NCBI RefSeq assembly: GCF_056746865.1
Contig: NZ_CM163382.1
DNA length: 64,000 nt
Direction: 5' to 3' (one strand)
Under the pieces are notes generated by a model. It was not told where the DNA came from, searched no databases, and worked only from the letters and a program-made list of their open reading frames with translations. Of this stretch, positions 4,849-54,514 are shown piece after piece. A program made the position numbers and the translations under genes. Position 1 is the first letter of the stretch, and the number at the start of each line of letters is the position of its first letter.

Positions 4849-6327
4849 TCACCCCGCCCGTAAAAGCATTTTCATTTTTTCGCTGCGACAAAACTGACGC
4901 TTCACTTCCACTACCAGCGGATGGCGTGACAGCACAATCATCACCACAAACGCCAGCACGCCTGCGGCTATTTGCACCGCCAGCAGCATCCCCAGCGCCA
5001 GTTGCCCTTTCAGCACAATGCCCAGCGCATAACTGACCGCCAGCGTCGGCAGCGAGAGATAAAACGGCAGCCATAAACTCAGGATGTATTGGCGATAACT
5101 GGAACCGAGCACCGGTTTAATCATCACGAAATAGCTCAGAATGGTGTTGATAATCTGCACCAGCAGGAAGCCAAGCGTGACGCCGATTGCGCCCGCCATC
5201 TGCCCACCAATAACAATCGCCGGAATAAACAGAAAGGTTTTGAATACGTTGAATTTAAAGCTGATATCGACCCGCGCTTTCGCCATCAGCAGCGAACCAA
5301 TCGGGTTCCCCACTGAGCGCAGCAGCCCCACCACACACAGCAATTGCAGCACCGGAATAATGCTGTTCCACTTCTCACCAAAGACCAGCGGTACAAAGTT
5401 ATTCGACACCACCATCAGCGCCAGCAGCGCCGGAAAGTTGATAATCCCCACTACCGACAGCAGCTTGTAGAAGTTAACGCGCAGCTTTTCGGTGTCGTCC
5501 TGAATTTTGGCAAATGCCGGAAACAACACGCGGGTGATGATTGGGTTCAGCTTCATCGGCGGCACAACGGCCACGTTGTACGCCAGGTTGTATCCCCCTG
5601 CTACGCCCGCGCCGAGAATACGCGCCAGCACCAGCGTTGAAAGGTTGGTGTTGAGATAGTTGATGATGCTGTCCGCCGTCAGCCAGGCACCAAAACGTAA
5701 GTTTGGTGCCACCGACGCCAGCGAGAAATGAAGACCGGGGCGATAAATTTTTCGACCAAAGTAGCCAAACAGCAGCGTTCTTACCGCACTATTGACCAGA
5801 TAACCGAGGATCGCGGTCATCGCCAGCGGCCAGAAATGGGCGCTAACCACCGTAAAAGTGAAGCCCGCCAGCACCGCGCTGGTTTCGATCATGCCGATTT
5901 TGTTGAACTCCAGCTCTTTTTGCATCAACGCGCGGAACTGCTGCCCGTGGGGGATCACCACAAACGCCAGCGACAATGTTTTAATCAACGGTGCCAGGTC
6001 CGGGTTATTCAGCACGTCGCCGATGAGATCACTCAACAAAAACACCGCCACACACACCACAAGCCCCAGCCCAACGTTCAGCCAGTACAGCGTGGTGAGT
6101 TCAAGGTGGCTGATTTCTTTTCGCTGAATAATCGAGTTAGCGATACCGAAGTCAGAAAGCGTATCTGCCAGCGCGATGATCACCAGCGACACGGTAAGCA
6201 AACCGAACTGGTGGTTGTCGATAATCCGCGCCAGCACGGTCATCTGCACCAGCCCGAGGCCGATGATGATCACCGTGGCAATCGCCGACCACTTCGCGCC
6301 GCTGATGGTTTTTTCACGTAAGCTCAT
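4849..6327 (-). CDS. wzxC: colanic acid repeat-unit flippase WzxC (492 aa, polytopic membrane protein)
   Basis: ORF track 492 aa; highly hydrophobic; synteny. Confidence 0.9.
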   Translation of the reverse strand: MSLREKTISGAKWSAIATVIIIGLGLVQMTVLARIIDNHQFGLLTVSLVIIALADTLSDFGIANSIIQRKEISHLELTTLYWLNVGLGLVVCVAVFLLSDLIGDVLNNPDLAPLIKTLSLAFVVIPHGQQFRALMQKELEFNKIGMIETSAVLAGFTFTVVSAHFWPLAMTAILGYLVNSAVRTLLFGYFGRKIYRPGLHFSLASVAPNLRFGAWLTADSIINYLNTNLSTLVLARILGAGVAGGYNLAYNVAVVPPMKLNPIITRVLFPAFAKIQDDTEKLRVNFYKLLSVVGIINFPALLALMVVSNNFVPLVFGEKWNSIIPVLQLLCVVGLLRSVGNPIGSLLMAKARVDISFKFNVFKTFLFIPAIVIGGQMAGAIGVTLGFLLVQIINTILSYFVMIKPVLGSSYRQYILSLWLPFYLSLPTLAVSYALGIVLKGQLALGMLLAVQIAAGVLAFVVMIVLSRHPLVVEVKRQFCRSEKMKMLLRAG

Positions 6328-6328
6328 A

Positions 6329-7723
6329 TCAATATGCCGCTTTGTTAACGAAGCCTTTGAATACCGTCAGGAAAACGATTTTGATATCGAACCAGACGCT
6401 CCATTCGCGGATGTACTCAAGGTCGAACTCGACGCGTTTTTCCATTTTCTCCAGCGTGTCGGTTTCGCCGCGCCAGCCGTTAATCTGCGCCCAGCCGGTA
6501 ATGCCCGGTTTCACCTTATGGCGCAGCATGTAGCCTTCAATGAGCTGTCGATACTGTTCGTTATGCGCCACCGCGTGTGGACGTGGCCCGACAATCGACA
6601 TCCCGCCAGTCAGCACATTGATAAACTGCGGCAATTCGTCCAGCGAGGTGCGGCGCAGAAAGTTCCCCACTTTGGTGACGCGCGGATCGTTCTGCGTCGC
6701 CTGGGTCACCACTTTGTCGTTCTCCATCACTTTCATCGAACGGAACTTCCACACTTTGATCGGCTTGCCATCCATGCCATAGCGAGTCTGGCGGAAAATA
6801 ACCGGTCCTGGTGAACTGAGTTTTACCGCCAGCGCAATACAGCACAGCACCGGGGAGATCAGCAGCAGGATAAGCGTTGCCAGCACAATGTCTTCTGCAC
6901 GTTTTATCAGGCGGTTAACCCCGGAAAGCGGCGTGTCATACAGCGGCACCACCGGTACGCCGTTCATCTCTTCGATACGTGAATGGAGAATGTTGAAGGT
7001 AAAGACGTCGGGGATCAGCAGCACCGAACAGGTGGTGTCCGCCAATTGATGGACCAGTTTTTTCACTCGCGCGCCGTCGCACATTTGCATCGCGATATAG
7101 ACGTTATGAATCTTGCCCGCTTTTGCATCCTCTACCAGCTGTTGCAGATTGCCCGCCCAGTCGTTAGAAACGCCGCCCGGTTTTGGGTCGTGGTATACGC
7201 CCACCACTTCAAACCCTAACCACGGCTGATTACGGAAGCTCTCCATCAGCATTTGTCCGGCGGCTAAATCCCCCGCTACGGCGACCATGCGCTTGTTATA
7301 GCCATGATTACGCAGCCAGCCCGCCCCAATGCGAATACATGAACGGCAAACCACCAGTCCGATACTGGTCAGCCCATACCACGCCAGCCAGATTTTCAGT
7401 TGCGTGTCGAAATCATTGTTGAACGCCACCAGTCCGGCGCTGAAAATCACGCTTAAGGTCCAGTTTTGTAGCAGCAGGGCAAATTCTGTCGCTGCCCGAA
7501 CACCGCGCCATGAGCGATAAAAATCGGTGATGCCGCCCAACATCTGGAACACCACCAGCGTAATCAGCGCCACCAACAGGTGCATGTAGAGGAATGACAG
7601 TCCGCTCACTTCGCAAACCAGCCATAGTCCGGCAAACATGATGGTGATATCTGAAAAGCGTTGCACCATAGAGATTAACGATGCATTGGTTTTCGCTCGC
7701 TCGCGCTTTTTTAGATTTGTCAT
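6329..7723 (-). CDS. wcaJ: undecaprenyl-phosphate glucose-1-phosphate transferase WcaJ (464 aa)
   Basis: ORF track 464 aa; N-terminal TM segments plus C-terminal sugar transferase motif (VGPRPHAVAHNEQY, DELPQF); synteny. Confidence 0.9.
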   Translation of the reverse strand: MTNLKKRERAKTNASLISMVQRFSDITIMFAGLWLVCEVSGLSFLYMHLLVALITLVVFQMLGGITDFYRSWRGVRAATEFALLLQNWTLSVIFSAGLVAFNNDFDTQLKIWLAWYGLTSIGLVVCRSCIRIGAGWLRNHGYNKRMVAVAGDLAAGQMLMESFRNQPWLGFEVVGVYHDPKPGGVSNDWAGNLQQLVEDAKAGKIHNVYIAMQMCDGARVKKLVHQLADTTCSVLLIPDVFTFNILHSRIEEMNGVPVVPLYDTPLSGVNRLIKRAEDIVLATLILLLISPVLCCIALAVKLSSPGPVIFRQTRYGMDGKPIKVWKFRSMKVMENDKVVTQATQNDPRVTKVGNFLRRTSLDELPQFINVLTGGMSIVGPRPHAVAHNEQYRQLIEGYMLRHKVKPGITGWAQINGWRGETDTLEKMEKRVEFDLEYIREWSVWFDIKIVFLTVFKGFVNKAAY

Positions 7724-9148: not shown

Positions 9149-9237
9149 ATCGTTACCCTTTTTCAGGCAATAGTTGGCCCTGACCGAAGCGGCCAATTTT
9201 GTTTTTGTCGTTATTTACACCGCGGTTTCGCATTCAT

Positions 9238-23690: not shown

Positions 23691-23903
23691 CCTGGCTTTT
23701 TAGCTACCAATACACTGATTTAGTTTAATTTTTCACACCCTCTCAGCATGCAGTCGTTGATGAGAAAGGGTTATTACGGAAATTAACTTCCGAATATAAG
23801 GTGACATTATGGTAATTGAATATTGGCTTTCCAATAATGCAGGAGGAAGTGTTACAGCTAACGGAATAGCAGGCAAGGTAACAATTCGGCAATTGGCTAT
23901 TTT

Positions 23904-23917
23904 TAAGAATTATATTA
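23904..23917 (-). promoter_or_regulatory. candidate RcsAB-box-like sequence (taagaattatatta) in the wza upstream region
   Basis: Partial match by eye to the RcsAB box consensus TaAGaatatTCctA; the AT-rich context makes chance matches likely. Confidence 0.25.
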
Positions 23918-24158
23918 AGTGTCATTCAATATGGTTTTTAGGAGTTTCTTTAGGTTGACAATATTTAATATTGCGCCTCCACATGCGATATTTCTTAAAT
24001 AATGTTTTATTATTACCACTTTTAATTCAGGGATAATGTGAGGTTATTACCCTCAAATAATATGAGATAAATAGTGCTGCAACATTGCATTTTTGCCCCG
24101 ATTTATCCATGATCGAATTGTGACATTTGTCATACAACGAATAGGTTTTGTACTTACT

Positions 24159-25742
24159 ATGGAATGGATTGCCGATCCGTCTATCTGGGCCGGGTTAATC
24201 ACGCTGATTGTGATCGAACTGGTCCTCGGCATTGATAACCTGGTCTTTATTGCCATCCTCGCCGAAAAACTACCGCCGAAGCAGCGCGACCGCGCACGGG
24301 TTACCGGGCTGCTGCTGGCGATGTTAATGCGCCTGTTACTGCTGGCGTCAATCTCCTGGCTGGTCACCCTGACTCAACCGCTGTTCAGCTTCCGCTCGTT
24401 TACCTTTAGCGCCCGCGACTTAATCATGCTGTTTGGTGGTTTCTTCCTGTTGTTCAAAGCCACGATGGAGCTGAACGAACGGCTGGAAGGGAAAGACAGC
24501 AATAATCCCACACAACGCAAAGGTGCGAAGTTCTGGGGCGTGGTGACGCAAATTGTGGTACTGGACGCCATTTTCTCACTCGACTCAGTGATTACCGCCG
24601 TCGGGATGGTCGACCATTTACTGGTCATGATGGCCGCCGTGGTTATCGCTATCAGCCTGATGTTGATGGCCAGCAAGCCGTTAACGCAATTTGTTAACAG
24701 TCACCCGACCATCGTTATTCTCTGCTTAAGCTTCCTGTTGATGATTGGCTTTAGCCTGGTGGCAGAAGGTTTCGGCTTCGTCATTCCGAAAGGCTACCTG
24801 TACGCTGCCATTGGTTTCTCGGTGATGATCGAGGCGCTCAATCAGTTGGCTATCTTTAACCGGCGACGTTTTCTTTCCGCTAACCAGACGCTGCGCCAGC
24901 GGACTACCGAAGCGGTAATGCGCCTGCTTAGCGGGCAAAAAGAAGATGCGGAACTGGACGCCGAAACCGCGTCCATGCTGGTGGATCATGGTAACCAGCA
25001 GATCTTTAATCCGCAGGAACGGCGGATGATTGAGCGGGTACTAAATCTTAACCAGCGTACCGTCAGCAGCATTATGACGTCGCGCCACGATATTGAGCAT
25101 ATCGATCTCAACGCGCCGGAAGACGAGATCCGCCAGTTGCTGGAGCGAAATCAGCATACGCGGCTGGTGGTTACCGACGGTGATGACGCAGAAGATTTGC
25201 TCGGTGTTGTTCACGTTATCGACCTGCTACAACAGTCTCTGCGCGGCGAACCGCTCAACCTGCGGGTGTTGATTCGCCAGCCGCTGGTGTTCCCGGAAAC
25301 CTTGCCGTTGTTACCTGCCCTGGAGCAGTTCCGTAATGCCCGCACGCACTTTGCTTTTGTGGTGGATGAGTTTGGCTCGGTGGAAGGGATTGTGACATTA
25401 AGTGACGTCACTGAAACCATTGCCGGTAACTTACCGAACGAAGTGGAAGAGATCGACGCCCGCCATGATATTCAGAAGAATGCGGACGGTTCCTGGACGG
25501 CGAATGGTCATATGCCGCTGGAGGATCTGGTGCAATATGTGCCGCTGCCGCTGGATGAAAAACGTGAATATCACACCATTGCCGGGCTGTTGATGGAGTA
25601 TTTGCAGCGTATTCCAAAACCTGGCGAAGAAGTTCAGGTGGGGGATTATTTGCTTAAAACGTTGCAGGTAGAAAGCCATCGCGTGCAGAAGGTGCAGATT
25701 ATTCCGCTGCGTAAGGATGGCGAGATGGAGTACGAGGTGTGA
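24159..25742 (+). CDS. yegH: inner membrane protein YegH (TerC-family integral membrane domain + CBS pair + CorC/HlyC C-terminal domain, 527 aa)
   Basis: ORF track frame 24093..25742; start placed at ATG 24159 giving [18 protein letters not shown]...; divergent from wza. Confidence 0.9.
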
Positions 25743-25749
25743 TAAAACA

Positions 25750-25786
25750 TCAAATGCGCAGGTTCAAACTGCGCATTTGATTTATA
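25750..25786 (+). terminator. rho-independent terminator-like hairpin after yegH (tcaaatgcgcag-gttcaaa-ctgcgcatttga then T-rich)
   Basis: 12-bp perfect inverted repeat followed by tttat, read directly. Confidence 0.5.
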
Positions 25787-25796
25787 CAAAATTTAG

Positions 25797-25802
25797 TATA
25801 AT
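25797..25802 (+). promoter_or_regulatory. candidate -10 hexamer TATAAT upstream of the toxin gene (Shine-Dalgarno aaggatggag follows)
   Basis: tataat 15 nt upstream of ATG 25817; a TTGATT lies upstream but at sub-optimal 14-nt spacing. Confidence 0.35.
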
Positions 25803-25816
25803 CTAAGGATGGAGTA

Positions 25817-26155
25817 ATGAGAAAAAAGCTGGCTTTTCTTGATACCAGTCTTGACGATTTACGCGCATTTCCAGAATCGTCTCGACAGGAAATTGGCTAT
25901 CAACTCGACAGGATCCAACAAGGGTTAAACCCATACGACTGGAAACCTTTTTCAACTATCGGCCCTGGTGTGCGAGAGATTCGTACTCGCGATGCTGATG
26001 GGATCTATCGCGTCATGTATGTCGCAAAATTTGAAGAAGCGGTTTACGTATTGCATTGTTTTCAAAAGAAAACACAGACTACCAGTCAATCGGATATTGA
26101 TTTAGCCAAACGACGCTATAAAGAACTTGTTCAGGAGCGGAAAAATGAAAATTGA
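25817..26155 (+). CDS. type II toxin, RelE/ParE superfamily, HigB / phage Gp49-like (112 aa)
   Basis: ORF track 112 aa; small basic protein with C-terminal block VYVLHCFQKKTQTTSQSDIDLAKRRY typical of HigB/Gp49-like toxins; toxin-first order with an overlapping downstream HTH gene. Confidence 0.75.
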   Translation: MRKKLAFLDTSLDDLRAFPESSRQEIGYQLDRIQQGLNPYDWKPFSTIGPGVREIRTRDADGIYRVMYVAKFEEAVYVLHCFQKKTQTTSQSDIDLAKRRYKELVQERKNEN

Positions 26156-26435
26156 AACCTTTGATAGTGTGTGGGATGCGGTGAGTGACACCCCTGAACA
26201 AGCGGAAAATATGCGGATCCGTGCCGAACTTGTTACGATCATTAATAACTGGATTGAACAACAAGGGTTTAGCCAGGCTCAGGCAGCGTCTGCTTTAGGG
26301 GTCACTCAACCTCGCATATCTGAACTTGCCAGAGGTAAAATCCAGATCTTTAGTATCGATAAATTGATCACCATGATGGCTCATGCAGGGTTGCATATTC
26401 AACGTATTGAAGTTCAATATCCACATGCTGCTTAG
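26145..26435 (+). CDS. HTH XRE-family antitoxin (HigA-like, 96 aa)
   Basis: ORF track frame 26127..26435; start placed at ATG 26145 (MKIETFDSVW...), overlapping the toxin stop by 11 nt (ATGAAAATTGA); helix-turn-helix region QAQAASALGVTQPRISELARGK. Confidence 0.75.
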   Translation: MKIETFDSVWDAVSDTPEQAENMRIRAELVTIINNWIEQQGFSQAQAASALGVTQPRISELARGKIQIFSIDKLITMMAHAGLHIQRIEVQYPHAA

Positions 26436-26446
26436 TGCTATAAATA

Positions 26447-26476
26447 CAGATGGCGACAAATTGACGCCGCCATCTG
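26447..26476. terminator. hairpin (cagatggcg ... cgccatctg) between the antitoxin and the asmA 3' end; possible bidirectional terminator
   Basis: 9-bp inverted repeat read directly; no strong T-run on the plus side. Confidence 0.4.
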
Positions 26477-26487
26477 CATAACTTGTC

Positions 26488-28341
26488 TTACATCTTCTCC
26501 AGCAACTTCTTCACATCTTTGCCATTGCGGGAATCTTTATTCCGCTCGGCCCAGTCATTCAGGCGACGTTTCGCTTCGTCCTGTAGATGTTTGCGTAGCA
26601 GCTGGTCCACTTGCAGGCTGTAATTAAGTTGCTGCCAGTTGCCATAAACCCGCAGCGGTACTGGCGTTTCTTTGAGGAAATCAATCAGTTTGCTTTCCCC
26701 GTTCCAGCCCCCCACGACCCGAATATCAAACTGGGTGTCACAGGTTTGCTCCGCCAGATTCAACGTACCAGCCCCGGAAAGCGCCAGCATGGGCGATTGA
26801 CCTTGCATGTCGTTTAACGTCACGACGCCATCCTTCAACGTCAAATCGGTGGTAAAGCGGTCAAGACGCGTTACGTTATCGAAGTTTTCAGCGGCCTTCA
26901 CATCACCACCATTACGTTCTACCGCTTGCTGAATCATCTGCTGGAAGTTCATCCCTTCCATGCGCGTGTCGGTCATTTCGACATGTGCCTGTCCTTGCCA
27001 GTTATGGCGGAATGCGTCGGCATCTATGTCAGCACCGGAGAAATCACCAGCCAGTGACATCTTTCCGGTCAACGAAATCGGATAGTTAAACGCCTTCAGA
27101 ATGGTACCAATCTCAACGTTTTCCAGCCGTGGCTGGAAGTTTATCCGCGGATTTATTGATGTCGCGTCCAGCGTGCCCGGCAGTGAAACCTGTCCACCGT
27201 TAAGTTTGCCCTGCAGTTGAGTAATTTCCAGCAAACCCGACTTGTTGGTCATTTGCGTGGCAACATCTGTAAAATTCATTCCGCGCCAGCGCACGTTACT
27301 GGCCTGCAACAAAATATCAGCCGTAAAGCCTTGCAGTCCCTGATAGGCCGGTTCATCAATACGCGAAGAAATGACCGGGCGCGGCAACGTTGATTGGCTC
27401 TGCCCCTGCTGCGCGGCACCGTTTTCACCGTTCGCTGTTTCATTAAGCGGGATGAGGTTGTCAAGATTCAGTTGCGGGAATTGCAGTCTCAGCTGCCATT
27501 CCGGTTTCTCTGTCAACGTGACCTGTGCTTGCCCGCTCAGCGTACTGTCATTGGCGGTCAAACTAATTTGGTTAAATGAAAGGCGTTTATGTGACTCCTG
27601 CCACTGGGCCTGGAAACTCCCCTGCCCCTGAATACCTTGTTTTGGTAAATCTGCACCCTGCAACTGCCAGTTAACTTGTTCAATAGCCGCCGTTAAATCA
27701 TGCGGATAATCAGAAGCATCTACCGTACCGTTAAGGGATATCGTGAGATCGCGCTGATCGCGATTAACCCGCCCGGAGAACTCAAATGAACCACGATGTT
27801 GGGGATCTTGTTCCATTTGCAGGCGAATATTGCGGATTGTCACCTGCTCGTCATCTTCATGCTGGAACACCAGCACGCTGTCCGCCACCTTAAGACTGGA
27901 TATATCAAACGACCATCCGCGATCGTCTGACAGATCCGGCAAGGTATTGTCGCGTGGTGCAACCGGGGCATCTTCACTGCGTACCGCTTCCGTCTGCGGC
28001 GTCAGTTGGATCACTGCCCCTTTTAGCATCACCTGCTTAACGCTCAGTTGATGACTCAGCAGTGGTAAAAGCGCCACGTCCAGACGCATGTTGTCTGCGC
28101 GAACCAGTGGCTGGCTCGCGCCCTGGGCAGTGAGAGACATTCGCCCGGAGAGGATACTAAGTTGCGGCCAGACGTGCCAACGCAGTGGCCCGTCGAGCTG
28201 CAATTGATAACCGCTACGTGCAGCAACTTGCTTGACCATATAGTCGCGGAAATCATTCGGATTCACCAGCAACACTAACGCAGATAACCCGGCCACCAGC
28301 ACGACCAGGAGTATCATCAGCGTCGTCAGAAATCGTCTCAT
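26488..28341 (-). CDS. asmA: outer membrane assembly protein AsmA (617 aa)
   Basis: ORF track 617 aa; N-terminal signal-anchor MRRFLTTLMILLVVLVAGLSALVLL; synteny with dcd/udk. Confidence 0.92.
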   Translation of the reverse strand: MRRFLTTLMILLVVLVAGLSALVLLVNPNDFRDYMVKQVAARSGYQLQLDGPLRWHVWPQLSILSGRMSLTAQGASQPLVRADNMRLDVALLPLLSHQLSVKQVMLKGAVIQLTPQTEAVRSEDAPVAPRDNTLPDLSDDRGWSFDISSLKVADSVLVFQHEDDEQVTIRNIRLQMEQDPQHRGSFEFSGRVNRDQRDLTISLNGTVDASDYPHDLTAAIEQVNWQLQGADLPKQGIQGQGSFQAQWQESHKRLSFNQISLTANDSTLSGQAQVTLTEKPEWQLRLQFPQLNLDNLIPLNETANGENGAAQQGQSQSTLPRPVISSRIDEPAYQGLQGFTADILLQASNVRWRGMNFTDVATQMTNKSGLLEITQLQGKLNGGQVSLPGTLDATSINPRINFQPRLENVEIGTILKAFNYPISLTGKMSLAGDFSGADIDADAFRHNWQGQAHVEMTDTRMEGMNFQQMIQQAVERNGGDVKAAENFDNVTRLDRFTTDLTLKDGVVTLNDMQGQSPMLALSGAGTLNLAEQTCDTQFDIRVVGGWNGESKLIDFLKETPVPLRVYGNWQQLNYSLQVDQLLRKHLQDEAKRRLNDWAERNKDSRNGKDVKKLLEKM

Positions 28342-39796: not shown

Positions 39797-39976
39797 AAGA
39801 AATCCTTTCTTAGAGAATTATTGAGGTCCGGTATCATACCGATTGCAATAATGAAATAAGAGCAAACGAAGAAACTTTCAGAATTAGGCCCGGCGGCGCA
39901 GAAAATTTTGCTATTCGCCTCGCAAGAACGGAGAGCCGTCGATTGACACTAAGGGCGGAGTGACATAATTTCAGGA

Positions 39977-40120
39977 GTGAGGGTTAGGGAGAGGTTTCCC
40001 CCTCCCCCTGGTGTTCTTAGTAAGCCTGGAAGCTAATCACTAAGAGTATCACCAGTATGATGACGTGCTTCATCATAACCCTTTCCTTATTAAAAGCCCT
40101 CTTCTCCGGGAGAGGGTTTC
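39977..40120 (+). ncRNA. sibA: Sib-family antisense sRNA (antitoxin of ibs copy 1); ends approximate
   Basis: Plus-strand TTGACA (39943-39948) with downstream -10-like cataat; GC hairpin gccctcttctccgggagagggt + T-run at ~40096-40120; fully covers the ibs ORF on the opposite strand. Confidence 0.5.
40017..40076 (-). CDS. ibsA: type I toxin Ibs family, 19 aa: MMKHVIILVILLVISFQAY
   Basis: Reverse complement of 40017-40076 translated by hand; hydrophobic Ibs-type peptide; too short for the ORF track. Confidence 0.8.
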   Translation of the reverse strand: MMKHVIILVILLVISFQAY

Positions 40121-40312
40121 CCGTTTCAGCGTCCCGCTGAAATCGTCGGCTTACCTCCTTTCGCCCTGAATGCAGTCTATCGCTAACGCGTGAACAAAAT
40201 AGTTTCCTCTGTGATTATTGCGTAACGACTCGCAAAGAATATTTGCTGGCAGGATCGCAGACTGCAAAGCCTGCAGATTGACAATCTTATCGTGAAGGCA
40301 TACTTTCAGGAG

Positions 40313-40446
40313 TGAGGGTAGAGCGGGGTTTCCCCCGCCCTGGTAGTCTTAGTATGCTGGGTAGCTAATCACTAAGAGCACCACGATGATGAGTATCTTC
40401 ATCATGACCCTTTCCTTATTTAAGGCCCCTTCCTCGGGAGGGGCTT
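40313..40446 (+). ncRNA. Sib-family antisense sRNA (copy 2); ends approximate
   Basis: TTGACA at 40278-40283, 17-nt spacer, -10-like tacttt; terminator hairpin ggccccttcctcgggaggggc + ttt at 40423-40446. Confidence 0.5.
40348..40404 (-). CDS. type I toxin Ibs family, 18 aa: MMKILIIVVLLVISYPAY
   Basis: Hand translation of reverse complement; IbsB-like. Confidence 0.75.
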
Positions 40447-40640
40447 TCCCGTTTCAGCGTCCCGCTAAAATCGTCGGCTTACCTCCTTTCGCCCTGAATG
40501 CAGTCTATCGCTAACGCGTGAACAAAATAGTTTCCTCTGTGATTATTGCGTAACGACTCGCAAAGAATATTTGCTGGCAGGATCGCAGACTGCAAAGCCT
40601 GCAGATTGACAATCTTATCGTGAAGGCATACTTTCAGGAG

Positions 40641-40775
40641 TGAGGGTAGAGCGGGGGTTCCCCCGCCCTGGTAGTCTTAGTAAGCCGGGAAGCTTATGAC
40701 TAAGAGCACCACGATGATGATCCACTTCATCATGACCCTTTCCTTATTTAAGGCCCCTTCCTCGGGAGGGGCTTT
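40641..40775 (+). ncRNA. Sib-family antisense sRNA (copy 3); ends approximate
   Basis: Same promoter and terminator architecture as copy 2 (TTGACA 40606-40611; hairpin ~40752-40775). Confidence 0.5.
40677..40733 (-). CDS. type I toxin Ibs family, 18 aa: MMKWIIIVVLLVISFPAY
   Basis: Hand translation of reverse complement; IbsB-like. Confidence 0.75.
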   Translation of the reverse strand: MMKWIIIVVLLVISFPAY

Positions 40776-40968
40776 CCCGTTTCAGCGTCCCGCTGAAATC
40801 ATCGGCTTACCTCCTTTCGCCCTGAATGCAGTCTATCGCTGACTTGCGGATAAAATAGTTTCACATGTGATTATTGTGTAACGTCTCGCAAAGAATATTT
40901 GCTGGCAGGATCGCAGACTGCAAAGCCTGCAGATTGACAATCTTATCGTGAAGGCATACTTTCAGGAG

Positions 40969-41103
40969 TGAGGGTAGAGCGGGGTTTCCCCCGCCCTGGT
41001 AGTCTTAGTATGCTGGGTAGCTAATCACTAAGAGCACCACGATGATGAGTAGCTTCATCATGACCCTTTCCTTATTTAAGGCCCCTTCCTCGGGAGGGGC
41101 TTT
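40969..41103 (+). ncRNA. Sib-family antisense sRNA (copy 4); ends approximate
   Basis: Same architecture (TTGACA 40934-40939; hairpin ~41080-41103). Confidence 0.5.
41005..41061 (-). CDS. type I toxin Ibs family, 18 aa: MMKLLIIVVLLVISYPAY
   Basis: Hand translation of reverse complement; IbsB-like. Confidence 0.75.
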   Translation of the reverse strand: MMKLLIIVVLLVISYPAY

Positions 41104-54343: not shown

Positions 54344-54479
54344 TTAATTTCGATTATTTTTCCCGGATGGAAAATTCTTAGAAACCGATCACATACAGCT
54401 GCATTTATTAAGGTTATCATCCGTTTCGCTGAAAAACATAACCCATAAAATGCTAGCTGTACCAGGAACCACCTCCTTA

Positions 54480-54514
54480 GCCTGTGTAATCTCCCTTACA
54501 CGGGCTTATTTTTT
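54480..54514 (+). terminator. rho-independent terminator-like hairpin downstream of yegQ (gcctgtgtaa-tctccc-ttacacgggc + ttattttttat)
   Basis: 10-bp stem (one G-U) followed by T-run, read directly. Confidence 0.5.

Follow-up and report, generated by a model that had tools for sequence, protein, structure and literature searches.

The window analysed here, a stretch of 64,000 nucleotides (contig NZ_CM163382.1 of NCBI RefSeq assembly GCF_056746865.1), carries between yegH and asmA a two-gene cassette which is very probably a chromosomally located version of a mobile type II toxin-antitoxin (TA) operon, in the class that pairs a Gp49 toxin with an HTH_37 antitoxin, i.e. a "reverse", HigBA-like module. 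The initial annotation of this DNA had described two overlapping open reading frames (ORFs) at this site, encoding proteins of 112 and 96 amino acids (aa), with an overlap of 11 nt between the stop codon of ORF1 and the start codon of ORF2. Both the ORFs and the overlap (ATGAAAATTGA, 26145-26155) are present in the sequence as described. Each gene is preceded by a good Shine-Dalgarno sequence (AAGGA at 25805-25809 for ORF1 and AGGAG at 26133-26137 for ORF2), and the two are translationally coupled. In RefSeq they carry the PGAP annotations 'type II toxin-antitoxin system RelE/ParE family toxin' and 'helix-turn-helix domain-containing protein', also in O157:H7.

A profile hidden Markov model (HMM) search placed ORF1 within the Gp49 family (Pfam PF05973; E 1.5e-30, 105.6 bits), residues 13-102 covering the full length of the model (positions 1-90 of 90), which bears out the proposed membership of a RelE/ParE/Gp49-type family. 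The protein also matched PHROG 2523 (5.7e-37). Comparison with the Pfam HigB families gave no match, and the score obtained with TIGR02683 (upstrm_HI1419 RelE/ParE toxin), 27 bits, was below the cutoff of 62.85. An AlphaFold (AF2) model of the toxin, for which 29 homologues were used (predicted local distance difference test score, pLDDT, 91.9), shows strands within residues 42-84 and a long C-terminal helix (residues 91-111), which is typical of Gp49-like toxins (PMC9098466). The top matches of this model among Protein Data Bank (PDB) structures in a Foldseek search were HigB1 of Mycobacterium tuberculosis (Mtb; 7awk/7nbu, template modelling score TMq 0.68), HigB of Streptococcus pneumoniae (6af4) and HigB2 of Vibrio cholerae (5ja8; TMq 0.60), with ParE2 (5cw7; TM 0.43-0.46), RelE and YafQ at lower ranks. 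The toxin is therefore predicted, from its modelled structure, to have a RelE-type fold with the long C-terminal helix of the Gp49 proteins. Neither V. cholerae HigB2 nor Mtb HigB1 was retrieved from the PDB by sequence, not even when a family profile was used at E 10, and these two were found by fold comparison alone; the sole sequence-level match was S. pneumoniae HigB (E 8e-4 with the family profile).

In the alignment with S. pneumoniae HigB, residues R65, F82 and K84 of the toxin lie opposite R73, F90 and K92, which are equivalent to R77, F93 and K95 of HigB1; R73 and K92 are also equivalent to R61 and R81 of RelE (PMC9098466). Judging from their spacing, and not from a structural superposition, E54 and R56 would correspond to E66 and R68 of HigB1. 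E54, R56, R65, F82 and K84, as well as K85, are invariant across the 29 homologues. Set against the catalytic residues of HigB1 (E66, R68, R77, F93, K95, Q98 and K99), the toxin has E54, R56, R65, F82, K84 and Q87, followed by T88 at the position equivalent to K99.

ORF2, initially described as an XRE-type helix-turn-helix (HTH) protein, was assigned by the profile-HMM search to Pfam HTH_37 (PF13744; E 5e-22, model positions 2-76 of 80), in agreement with that description. It is similar in sequence to the structural-genomics protein 2a6c (E 3.4e-14), on which the HTH part of its model superposes with a TMt of 0.82 and a root-mean-square deviation of 1.4 A. With the HigA equivalog TIGR02607 it scored 16.3 bits, below the cutoff of 47.7. 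The earlier designation of the cassette as a toxin-first, HigBA-like module holds for the gene order and the protein families; with both scores under the cutoffs of the canonical equivalogs (TIGR02607 and TIGR02683), "HigBA-like" is a loose label.

Ahead of the HTH domain the antitoxin contains an N-terminal motif, F-SVWDAIEDTP-EAENMKLRS, which is strongly conserved in the partner antitoxins of 40 related loci. A model of the two proteins fused through a linker, computed from paired sequences, was confident throughout except for the linker (pLDDT 89.7; predicted template modelling score, pTM, 0.83). In this model, the HTH of the antitoxin is preceded by a strand (residues 3-6), a short helix (9-13) and a long helix (17-40), an arrangement that fits an N-terminal neutralising segment joined to a C-terminal DNA-binding domain. 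In two metagenome-assembled genomes (MAGs; loci L061 and L081, from Bryobacterales and Proteobacteria) toxins of 58-59% identity are followed by a 110-aa partner (starting MKIDTEIRHVT...) unrelated to the SVWDA motif, an apparent antitoxin swap within the toxin subfamily.

Inspection of the region upstream of the toxin gene revealed that the -10 hexamer noted in the initial annotation is embedded in a 16-bp palindrome, ATACAAAATTTAGTAT, which is one mismatch away from the perfect form ATACAAAATTTTGTAT and, in its extended form, reads TTATAC-N8-GTATAA (25782-25801). It is the sole match in the window. In the Salmonella plasmid copies of the cassette and in Pantoea the palindrome is likewise located just upstream of the toxin gene, and when the 120 nt preceding this gene were searched in 81 related loci from Alpha-, Beta- and Gammaproteobacteria, Acidobacteria and Actinobacteria, a palindrome with up to three mismatches to ATACAAAATTTTGTAT was found in 68 of them, compared with none of 3094 control windows taken from the same loci. 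The promoter consensus of the family is cTTGcc, 17 nt, TATAaT; the palindrome fills the spacer and the -10 hexamer, and so has the layout expected for repression by an HTH dimer. We infer that the antitoxin binds here, the palindrome being its likely operator for autorepression. DNA homology between the E. coli copy and the plasmid copies starts approximately 3 nt upstream of the palindrome. The toxin, the N-terminal motif of the antitoxin and the 16-bp palindrome of this lineage are conserved over several bacterial phyla.

Homologues are carried by 637 plasmids (303 conjugative; 115 Escherichia plasmids) and occur in 23 phage records; the family has members in prophages of Mycobacterium abscessus. 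The toxin-first layout recurs in 40 or more related loci, where the overlap is usually the 4-nt ATGA. Relatives with 79-82% identity are located on Salmonella plasmids, adjoining IncFII repA and tra genes, the identity of the antitoxin to the plasmid copies being 71-77%. Among the GTDB species representatives outside E. coli/Shigella, no orthologue was found at the yegH-asmA position, and the best match was from Pantoea (71%). For both genes, comparison of the E. coli copy with its nearest relatives gave a saturated proportion of synonymous differences (pS 0.74-0.94) and a low proportion of nonsynonymous ones (pN 0.11-0.24), which indicates long-term purifying selection on both. A recent donor is not among the sampled plasmids. 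On a plasmid contig of Salmonella diarizonae (locus L004) we observed a second toxin-first pair, Gp49 with an HTH protein (HTH_31/HTH_3), at 5913-6504 (- strand). It adjoins TraX- and TraW-like genes and shares this fragment of a conjugative plasmid with the Gp49/HTH_37 pair, at a distance of approximately 1.3 kb. Three E. coli "plasmids" in PLSDB, NZ_CP114132.1 (438 kb), CP137936.1 (365 kb) and NZ_CP083887.1 (43 kb), encode a toxin of 99-100% identity; the first two of these, which are very large, could be pieces of a chromosome or hybrid replicons instead of genuine plasmids.

The distribution of the cassette was analyzed in 5426 complete E. coli genomes, which are not phylogenetically independent. 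The 5' half of the toxin gene was present in 792 of them, in each of which 80% or more of the cassette is covered, and the antitoxin gene in 908; carriers include O157:H7 and O55:H7. The prediction of strain-variable content was thus correct, since the full form is not universal and is absent from K-12. The carriers examined, M7424 and O157:H7 FRIK804, have intact copies of the two ORFs. A K-12-type spacer (coverage of at least 80%) was found in 3819 genomes, and in a further form, seen in 117 genomes, K-12-type spacer sequence stands in place of the promoter and of codons 1 to ~56 of the toxin gene, next to an intact antitoxin gene. No genome among the 5426 was counted with the toxin and without the antitoxin. 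Such an excess of antitoxin over toxin is as expected of a working toxin.

Other alleles are also degraded. In strain elppa10 a 23-bp deletion between direct repeats (25876-25890 and 25899-25913) shifts the reading frame of the toxin gene and leaves the antitoxin gene intact, and all that remains of the antitoxin gene in WB61 is its final 57 bp. In E. coli E22 (locus L003, 1544-1934) we observed a K-12-type spacer with an extra insert of ~175 bp, fused to the toxin gene at codon ~57.

The initial annotation described yegH and asmA as adjacent in K-12 with no gene between them, and regarded the cassette as an islet of about 0.7 kb. In K-12 BW25113 there is indeed no gene at this position; what is found there is an unrelated 273-bp spacer ending in a repetitive extragenic palindromic (REP) element. 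The possibility that this spacer derives from the cassette by decay was rejected, as local alignment was no better than with shuffled sequences (z about 1.0 and 0.5). Because the K-12 spacer has no residual similarity to the cassette, the two are alternative alleles of the whole yegH-asmA spacer and not an insertion and its empty site; the islet is real as a strain-variable unit, but it replaces the entire spacer instead of being simply inserted. No direct or inverted repeats bracketing the cassette were detected in its flanks, apart from short matches likely to be due to chance. The K-12-type spacer itself (locus L001, 2544-2816) consists of ~200 bp of unannotated DNA and the REP element, the ~200-bp segment containing a CCAGGGTGG...CCACCCTGG hairpin.

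Table 1. Positions of the cassette and its flanking features within the 64,000-nt window.
Feature	Position	Strand	Details
yegH	stop codon TGA 25740-25742		left flank of the cassette
Left stem-loop	25749-25781	+	13-bp perfect stem, immediately 3' of the yegH stop codon
Promoter/predicted operator	25782-25802	+	palindrome ATACAAAATTTAGTAT (25784-25799) overlapping the -10 hexamer TATAAT (25797-25802)
Toxin gene (ORF1)	25817-26155	+	112 aa; identical to RefSeq WP_001227701.1
Antitoxin gene (ORF2)	26145-26435	+	96 aa from ATG; RefSeq WP_000687872.1
Right stem-loop	26444-26479 (arms 26444-26455 and 26468-26479)		between the convergent antitoxin gene and asmA
asmA	26488-28341	-	converges on the cassette

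The region is 100% identical over 821 bp to that of the near-identical genome M7424, in which the gene order is colanic-acid operon (wca genes through wza), yegH, cassette, asmA, dcd, udk. The G+C content of the cassette is 43%, compared with 51-55% in the flanks, and an Rfam scan detected no RNA family inside it. Two stem-loops border the genes (Table 1). The left one (RNA folding free energy -20.6 kcal/mol, z -6.8; none of 200 shuffled sequences was as good) has an inner G+C-rich stem, TGCGCAG/CTGCGCA, followed by TTTGATTTAT, and was scored as terminator-like on the - strand in a promoter/terminator scan. It is present in elppa10 and was not found upstream of the Salmonella and Pantoea relatives. 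This hairpin belongs only to the E. coli allele that bears the cassette and lies outside the mobile TA unit; it is probably the intrinsic terminator of yegH and an insulator at the junction. Its candidacy as an operator was rejected, since it is not conserved in the relatives, whereas the palindrome downstream of it is.

The right hairpin has a folding energy of -15.5 kcal/mol (z -3.5) on the + strand and -24.8 kcal/mol (z -6.1) on the - strand, on which it is followed by UAUUUAU. Because of this greater stability and of the sequence that follows it, the hairpin is probably the terminator of asmA; possibly it acts bidirectionally. It is kept in all decay variants that retain the right end (E22 and WB61), and in K-12 the REP element occupies its place. 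Of the hairpins that the initial annotation had placed on both sides of the cassette, then, both are strong in sequence, but the left one, being absent from the relatives, is not a part of the module. A near-repeat of 16 nt was noticed between the last codons of yegH (25712-25727, TAAGGATGGCGAGATG) and the ribosome-binding site and start of the toxin gene (25804-25819, TAAGGATGGAGTAATG), with 9 nt (GATGGAGTA) matching exactly; this could be due to chance, or be a microhomology used in joining the cassette.

Taken as a TA operon, the cassette would function as follows. HigB1 of M. tuberculosis is a ribosome-dependent mRNase which cleaves at A-site codons (PMC9098466), and by analogy the toxin seems rather more likely than otherwise to act in the same manner. 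It would enter the ribosomal A site and cleave translated mRNA with the E54/R56/R65/F82/K84 pocket and the basic C-terminal helix. The conserved N-terminal segment of the antitoxin would fold onto the toxin and block it, while the HTH dimer would bind the palindrome over the -10 hexamer and repress the operon; loss of the labile antitoxin would then free the toxin. Its role may be that of a selfish addiction remnant, or else one of those considered below, anti-addiction immunity and phage defence. As regards its history, the cassette took the place of the entire yegH-asmA spacer in a minority set of E. coli lineages, in some of which it is now decaying toxin-first.

Several observations weigh against this interpretation. 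In the E. coli copy the family cTTGcc is missing and the -35 position reads CATTTG, and a consensus sigma-70 scan of the + strand returned no promoter, there being no acceptable -35 hexamer 16-18 nt upstream of TATAAT; the expression level and the transcript start are therefore uncertain. Thus, of the cassette's own -10 element proposed initially, the hexamer exists, but the scan does not place it in a canonical sigma-70 promoter. The hexamer TTGATT is only 14 nt away from the -10. The K99-equivalent is T88 in this toxin and T, A or S in the enteric clade, K being found in most of the family, and in HigB1 the K99A substitution abolishes toxicity (PMC9098466). Two Gp49 toxins of M. tuberculosis, HigB2 and HigB3, are non-toxic (PMC9098466), so membership of the family does not guarantee activity. 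The linker of the fused toxin-antitoxin model is artificial. The 117 truncated copies may represent a single event, given the non-independence of the genomes. Finally, a search of the article library consulted found no paper on this particular yegH-asmA locus.

If these signs of weakness are taken at face value, the pair could be an inert or attenuated relic, whose toxin has lost its activity like Mtb HigB2 and HigB3 and which persists by drift or hitch-hiking. T88, the absent canonical -35 and the several decay alleles would all be accounted for in this way. We nevertheless consider it unlikely: pN is far below pS, the residues E54, R56, R65, F82, K84 and K85 are invariant, M7424 and O157:H7 FRIK804 carry undamaged copies of the two ORFs, and no genome was seen in which the toxin had outlived the antitoxin. 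The same missing lysine and -35 hexamer could instead reflect selection for the antitoxin as an anti-addiction or immunity function, neutralising related plasmid-borne Gp49/HTH_37 toxins so that plasmids can be lost without killing, with the toxin dispensable or attenuated. Possible targets exist in the relatives of 79-82% identity on IncFII/conjugative Salmonella plasmids and in the homologues on 115 Escherichia plasmids; the family-wide N-terminal motif would favour cross-neutralisation, and an intact antitoxin gene accompanies the truncated toxin gene in 117 genomes and the frameshifted one in elppa10. However, 792 of the 909 carriers keep the 5' half of the toxin gene (the ORF itself having been checked in few), purifying selection on the toxin is as strong as on the antitoxin, the identity of the antitoxin to the plasmid copies is merely 71-77%, and toxin-first decay is equally predicted for a plain selfish TA module. 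A role of this kind is doubtful in our view. There is likewise little chance that the E. coli copy arose from a highly mobile TA lineage by domestication and attenuation, with loss of the family -35 and of the K99-equivalent lysine, and is retained, in 117 genomes as the antitoxin alone, for antitoxin immunity against post-segregational killing by related plasmid modules.

Defence against phage is an established function of some type II TA modules, and the cassette might be one of them: shut-off of host transcription or degradation of the antitoxin by an infecting phage would free the mRNase and abort the infection. The strain-variable, accessory nature of the locus, its low G+C content and the frequency of the family on mobile elements and prophages (PHROG 2523; M. 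abscessus prophages) are compatible with abortive infection. Its neighbours, on the other hand, are yegH, asmA, dcd, udk and the colanic-acid operon, with no defence island, and the PADLOC models gave no meaningful defence-system match (best NsnC, 1.4e-3, for the toxin and PDC-M64C, 6.2e-5, for the antitoxin), which makes such a role improbable. Least credible is a ParE-like gyrase poison in place of an mRNase, gyrase poisoning being the second activity of the RelE/ParE superfamily, a reading we consider very improbable even though the PGAP label 'RelE/ParE family toxin' is generic and ParE2 (5cw7) is among the fold matches. The TM score of ParE2 (0.43-0.46) compares poorly with those of HigB1 (0.68) and HigB2 (0.60), the residues aligned with the catalytic residues of RelE and HigB are conserved, and the characterised Gp49-type toxins are RNases (Mtb HigB1 being a ribosome-bound RNase, PMC9098466); Gp49 is also named as one of the families to which RNase activity is ascribed (PMC7157771).

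With regard to known systems, Gp49-domain toxins are encoded toxin-first in all studied cases (PMC5906591), and toxin-first Gp49/HTH_37 pairs have been catalogued in the Tn3-family transposons Tn4662a and TnPosp1 (PMC7157771). The cassette resembles the latter in both Pfam families, in the order of toxin and antitoxin and in the association with mobile elements, but it is located in a chromosomal spacer, without nearby transposon genes or terminal repeats. Its best fold match, Mtb HigB1 (Rv1955, the toxin of a toxin-antitoxin-chaperone, TAC, system), has in common with the toxin the long C-terminal helix and an E-x-R...R...F-x-K pattern, in spite of an identity of just 19-21% and the T88 substitution. 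The HigB1 system is tripartite, including a SecB-like chaperone, whereas no chaperone gene is present here. The motif LHxFxK(K/R)TQ is common to the toxin and to that of the S. pneumoniae HigB-HigA system (6af3/6af4), but the sequence alignment is limited to the ~40 C-terminal residues and the antitoxin match is marginal (E 0.29). The V. cholerae HigB2-HigA2 system (5ja8, 8a0x) is also toxin-first and its toxin has a Gp49-like fold, yet no similarity to it was detectable by sequence search. In the work of Hadzi and colleagues from 2017, HigA2 of V. cholerae reportedly consists of an N-terminal toxin-binding segment and a C-terminal HTH, a layout which matches the fused model of ORF2.

The founding Gp49 members, in the account of Dziewit et al. 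2007 that is relayed in PMC5906591, are Tad-Ata and gp49-gp48 of phage N15, toxin-first modules which serve in plasmid or prophage stabilisation. N15 gp49 is 33% identical to the toxin over 95 aa (E 5e-17). N15 gp48 is unrelated to ORF2 (BLASTP gave no alignment at E <= 100), and the toxin therefore has a different partner here. The canonical HigBA systems (HigB of Rts1/Proteus vulgaris; HigB-HigA, ygjN-ygjM, of K-12) are similar in their toxin-first order, XRE-type HTH antitoxin and RelE-superfamily toxin, but the toxin described here has no Pfam HigB match and the antitoxin does not reach the HigA equivalog cutoff. Gp49 toxins in general show little similarity to canonical HigBs (PMC5906591).

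The locus is an ordinary, already annotated TA cassette, and the palindrome, the missing -35 hexamer, T88 and the decay series are modest features that will not surprise a specialist. Its description has little significance beyond bookkeeping: the accessory genome of E. coli, including that of O157:H7 and O55:H7, gains one uncharacterised type II module, situated beside the colanic-acid locus. Three uses can be envisaged. The conserved ATACAAAATTTTGTAT over the -10 hexamer could serve as an autoregulation test for the whole Gp49/HTH_37 class; the alleles found at a single chromosomal site (full, frameshifted, truncated, antitoxin stub and none) are usable for a study of TA loss or anti-addiction; and the yegH-asmA spacer is a simple presence/absence lineage marker.

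Several other features of the window were recorded. Four Sib antitoxin RNAs (Rfam RF00113, 138-150 bits each) are arranged in tandem between yegL and mdtA (39943-41076, + strand), and opposite them four ibs type I toxin genes are annotated in M7424. At this locus K-12 has two Sib RNAs (sibA and sibB), compared with which the four copies look like a copy-number expansion. The AT-rich intergenic region between wza and yegH contains an ORF of 49 aa (23809-23958, + strand; RefSeq hypothetical protein WP_162829205.1), annotated in M7424 and O157:H7 and not in K-12 BW25113; near it, upstream of wza, lies a JUMPstart element (Rfam RF01707; 23679-23717, - strand). Rfam models also identified the small RNA CyaR/RyeE at 54426-54511 (+ strand, 100.7 bits) and, inside the colanic-acid cluster near cpsG, the cis-regulatory motif 'algC RNA' at 9153-9202 (- strand, 77.3 bits).

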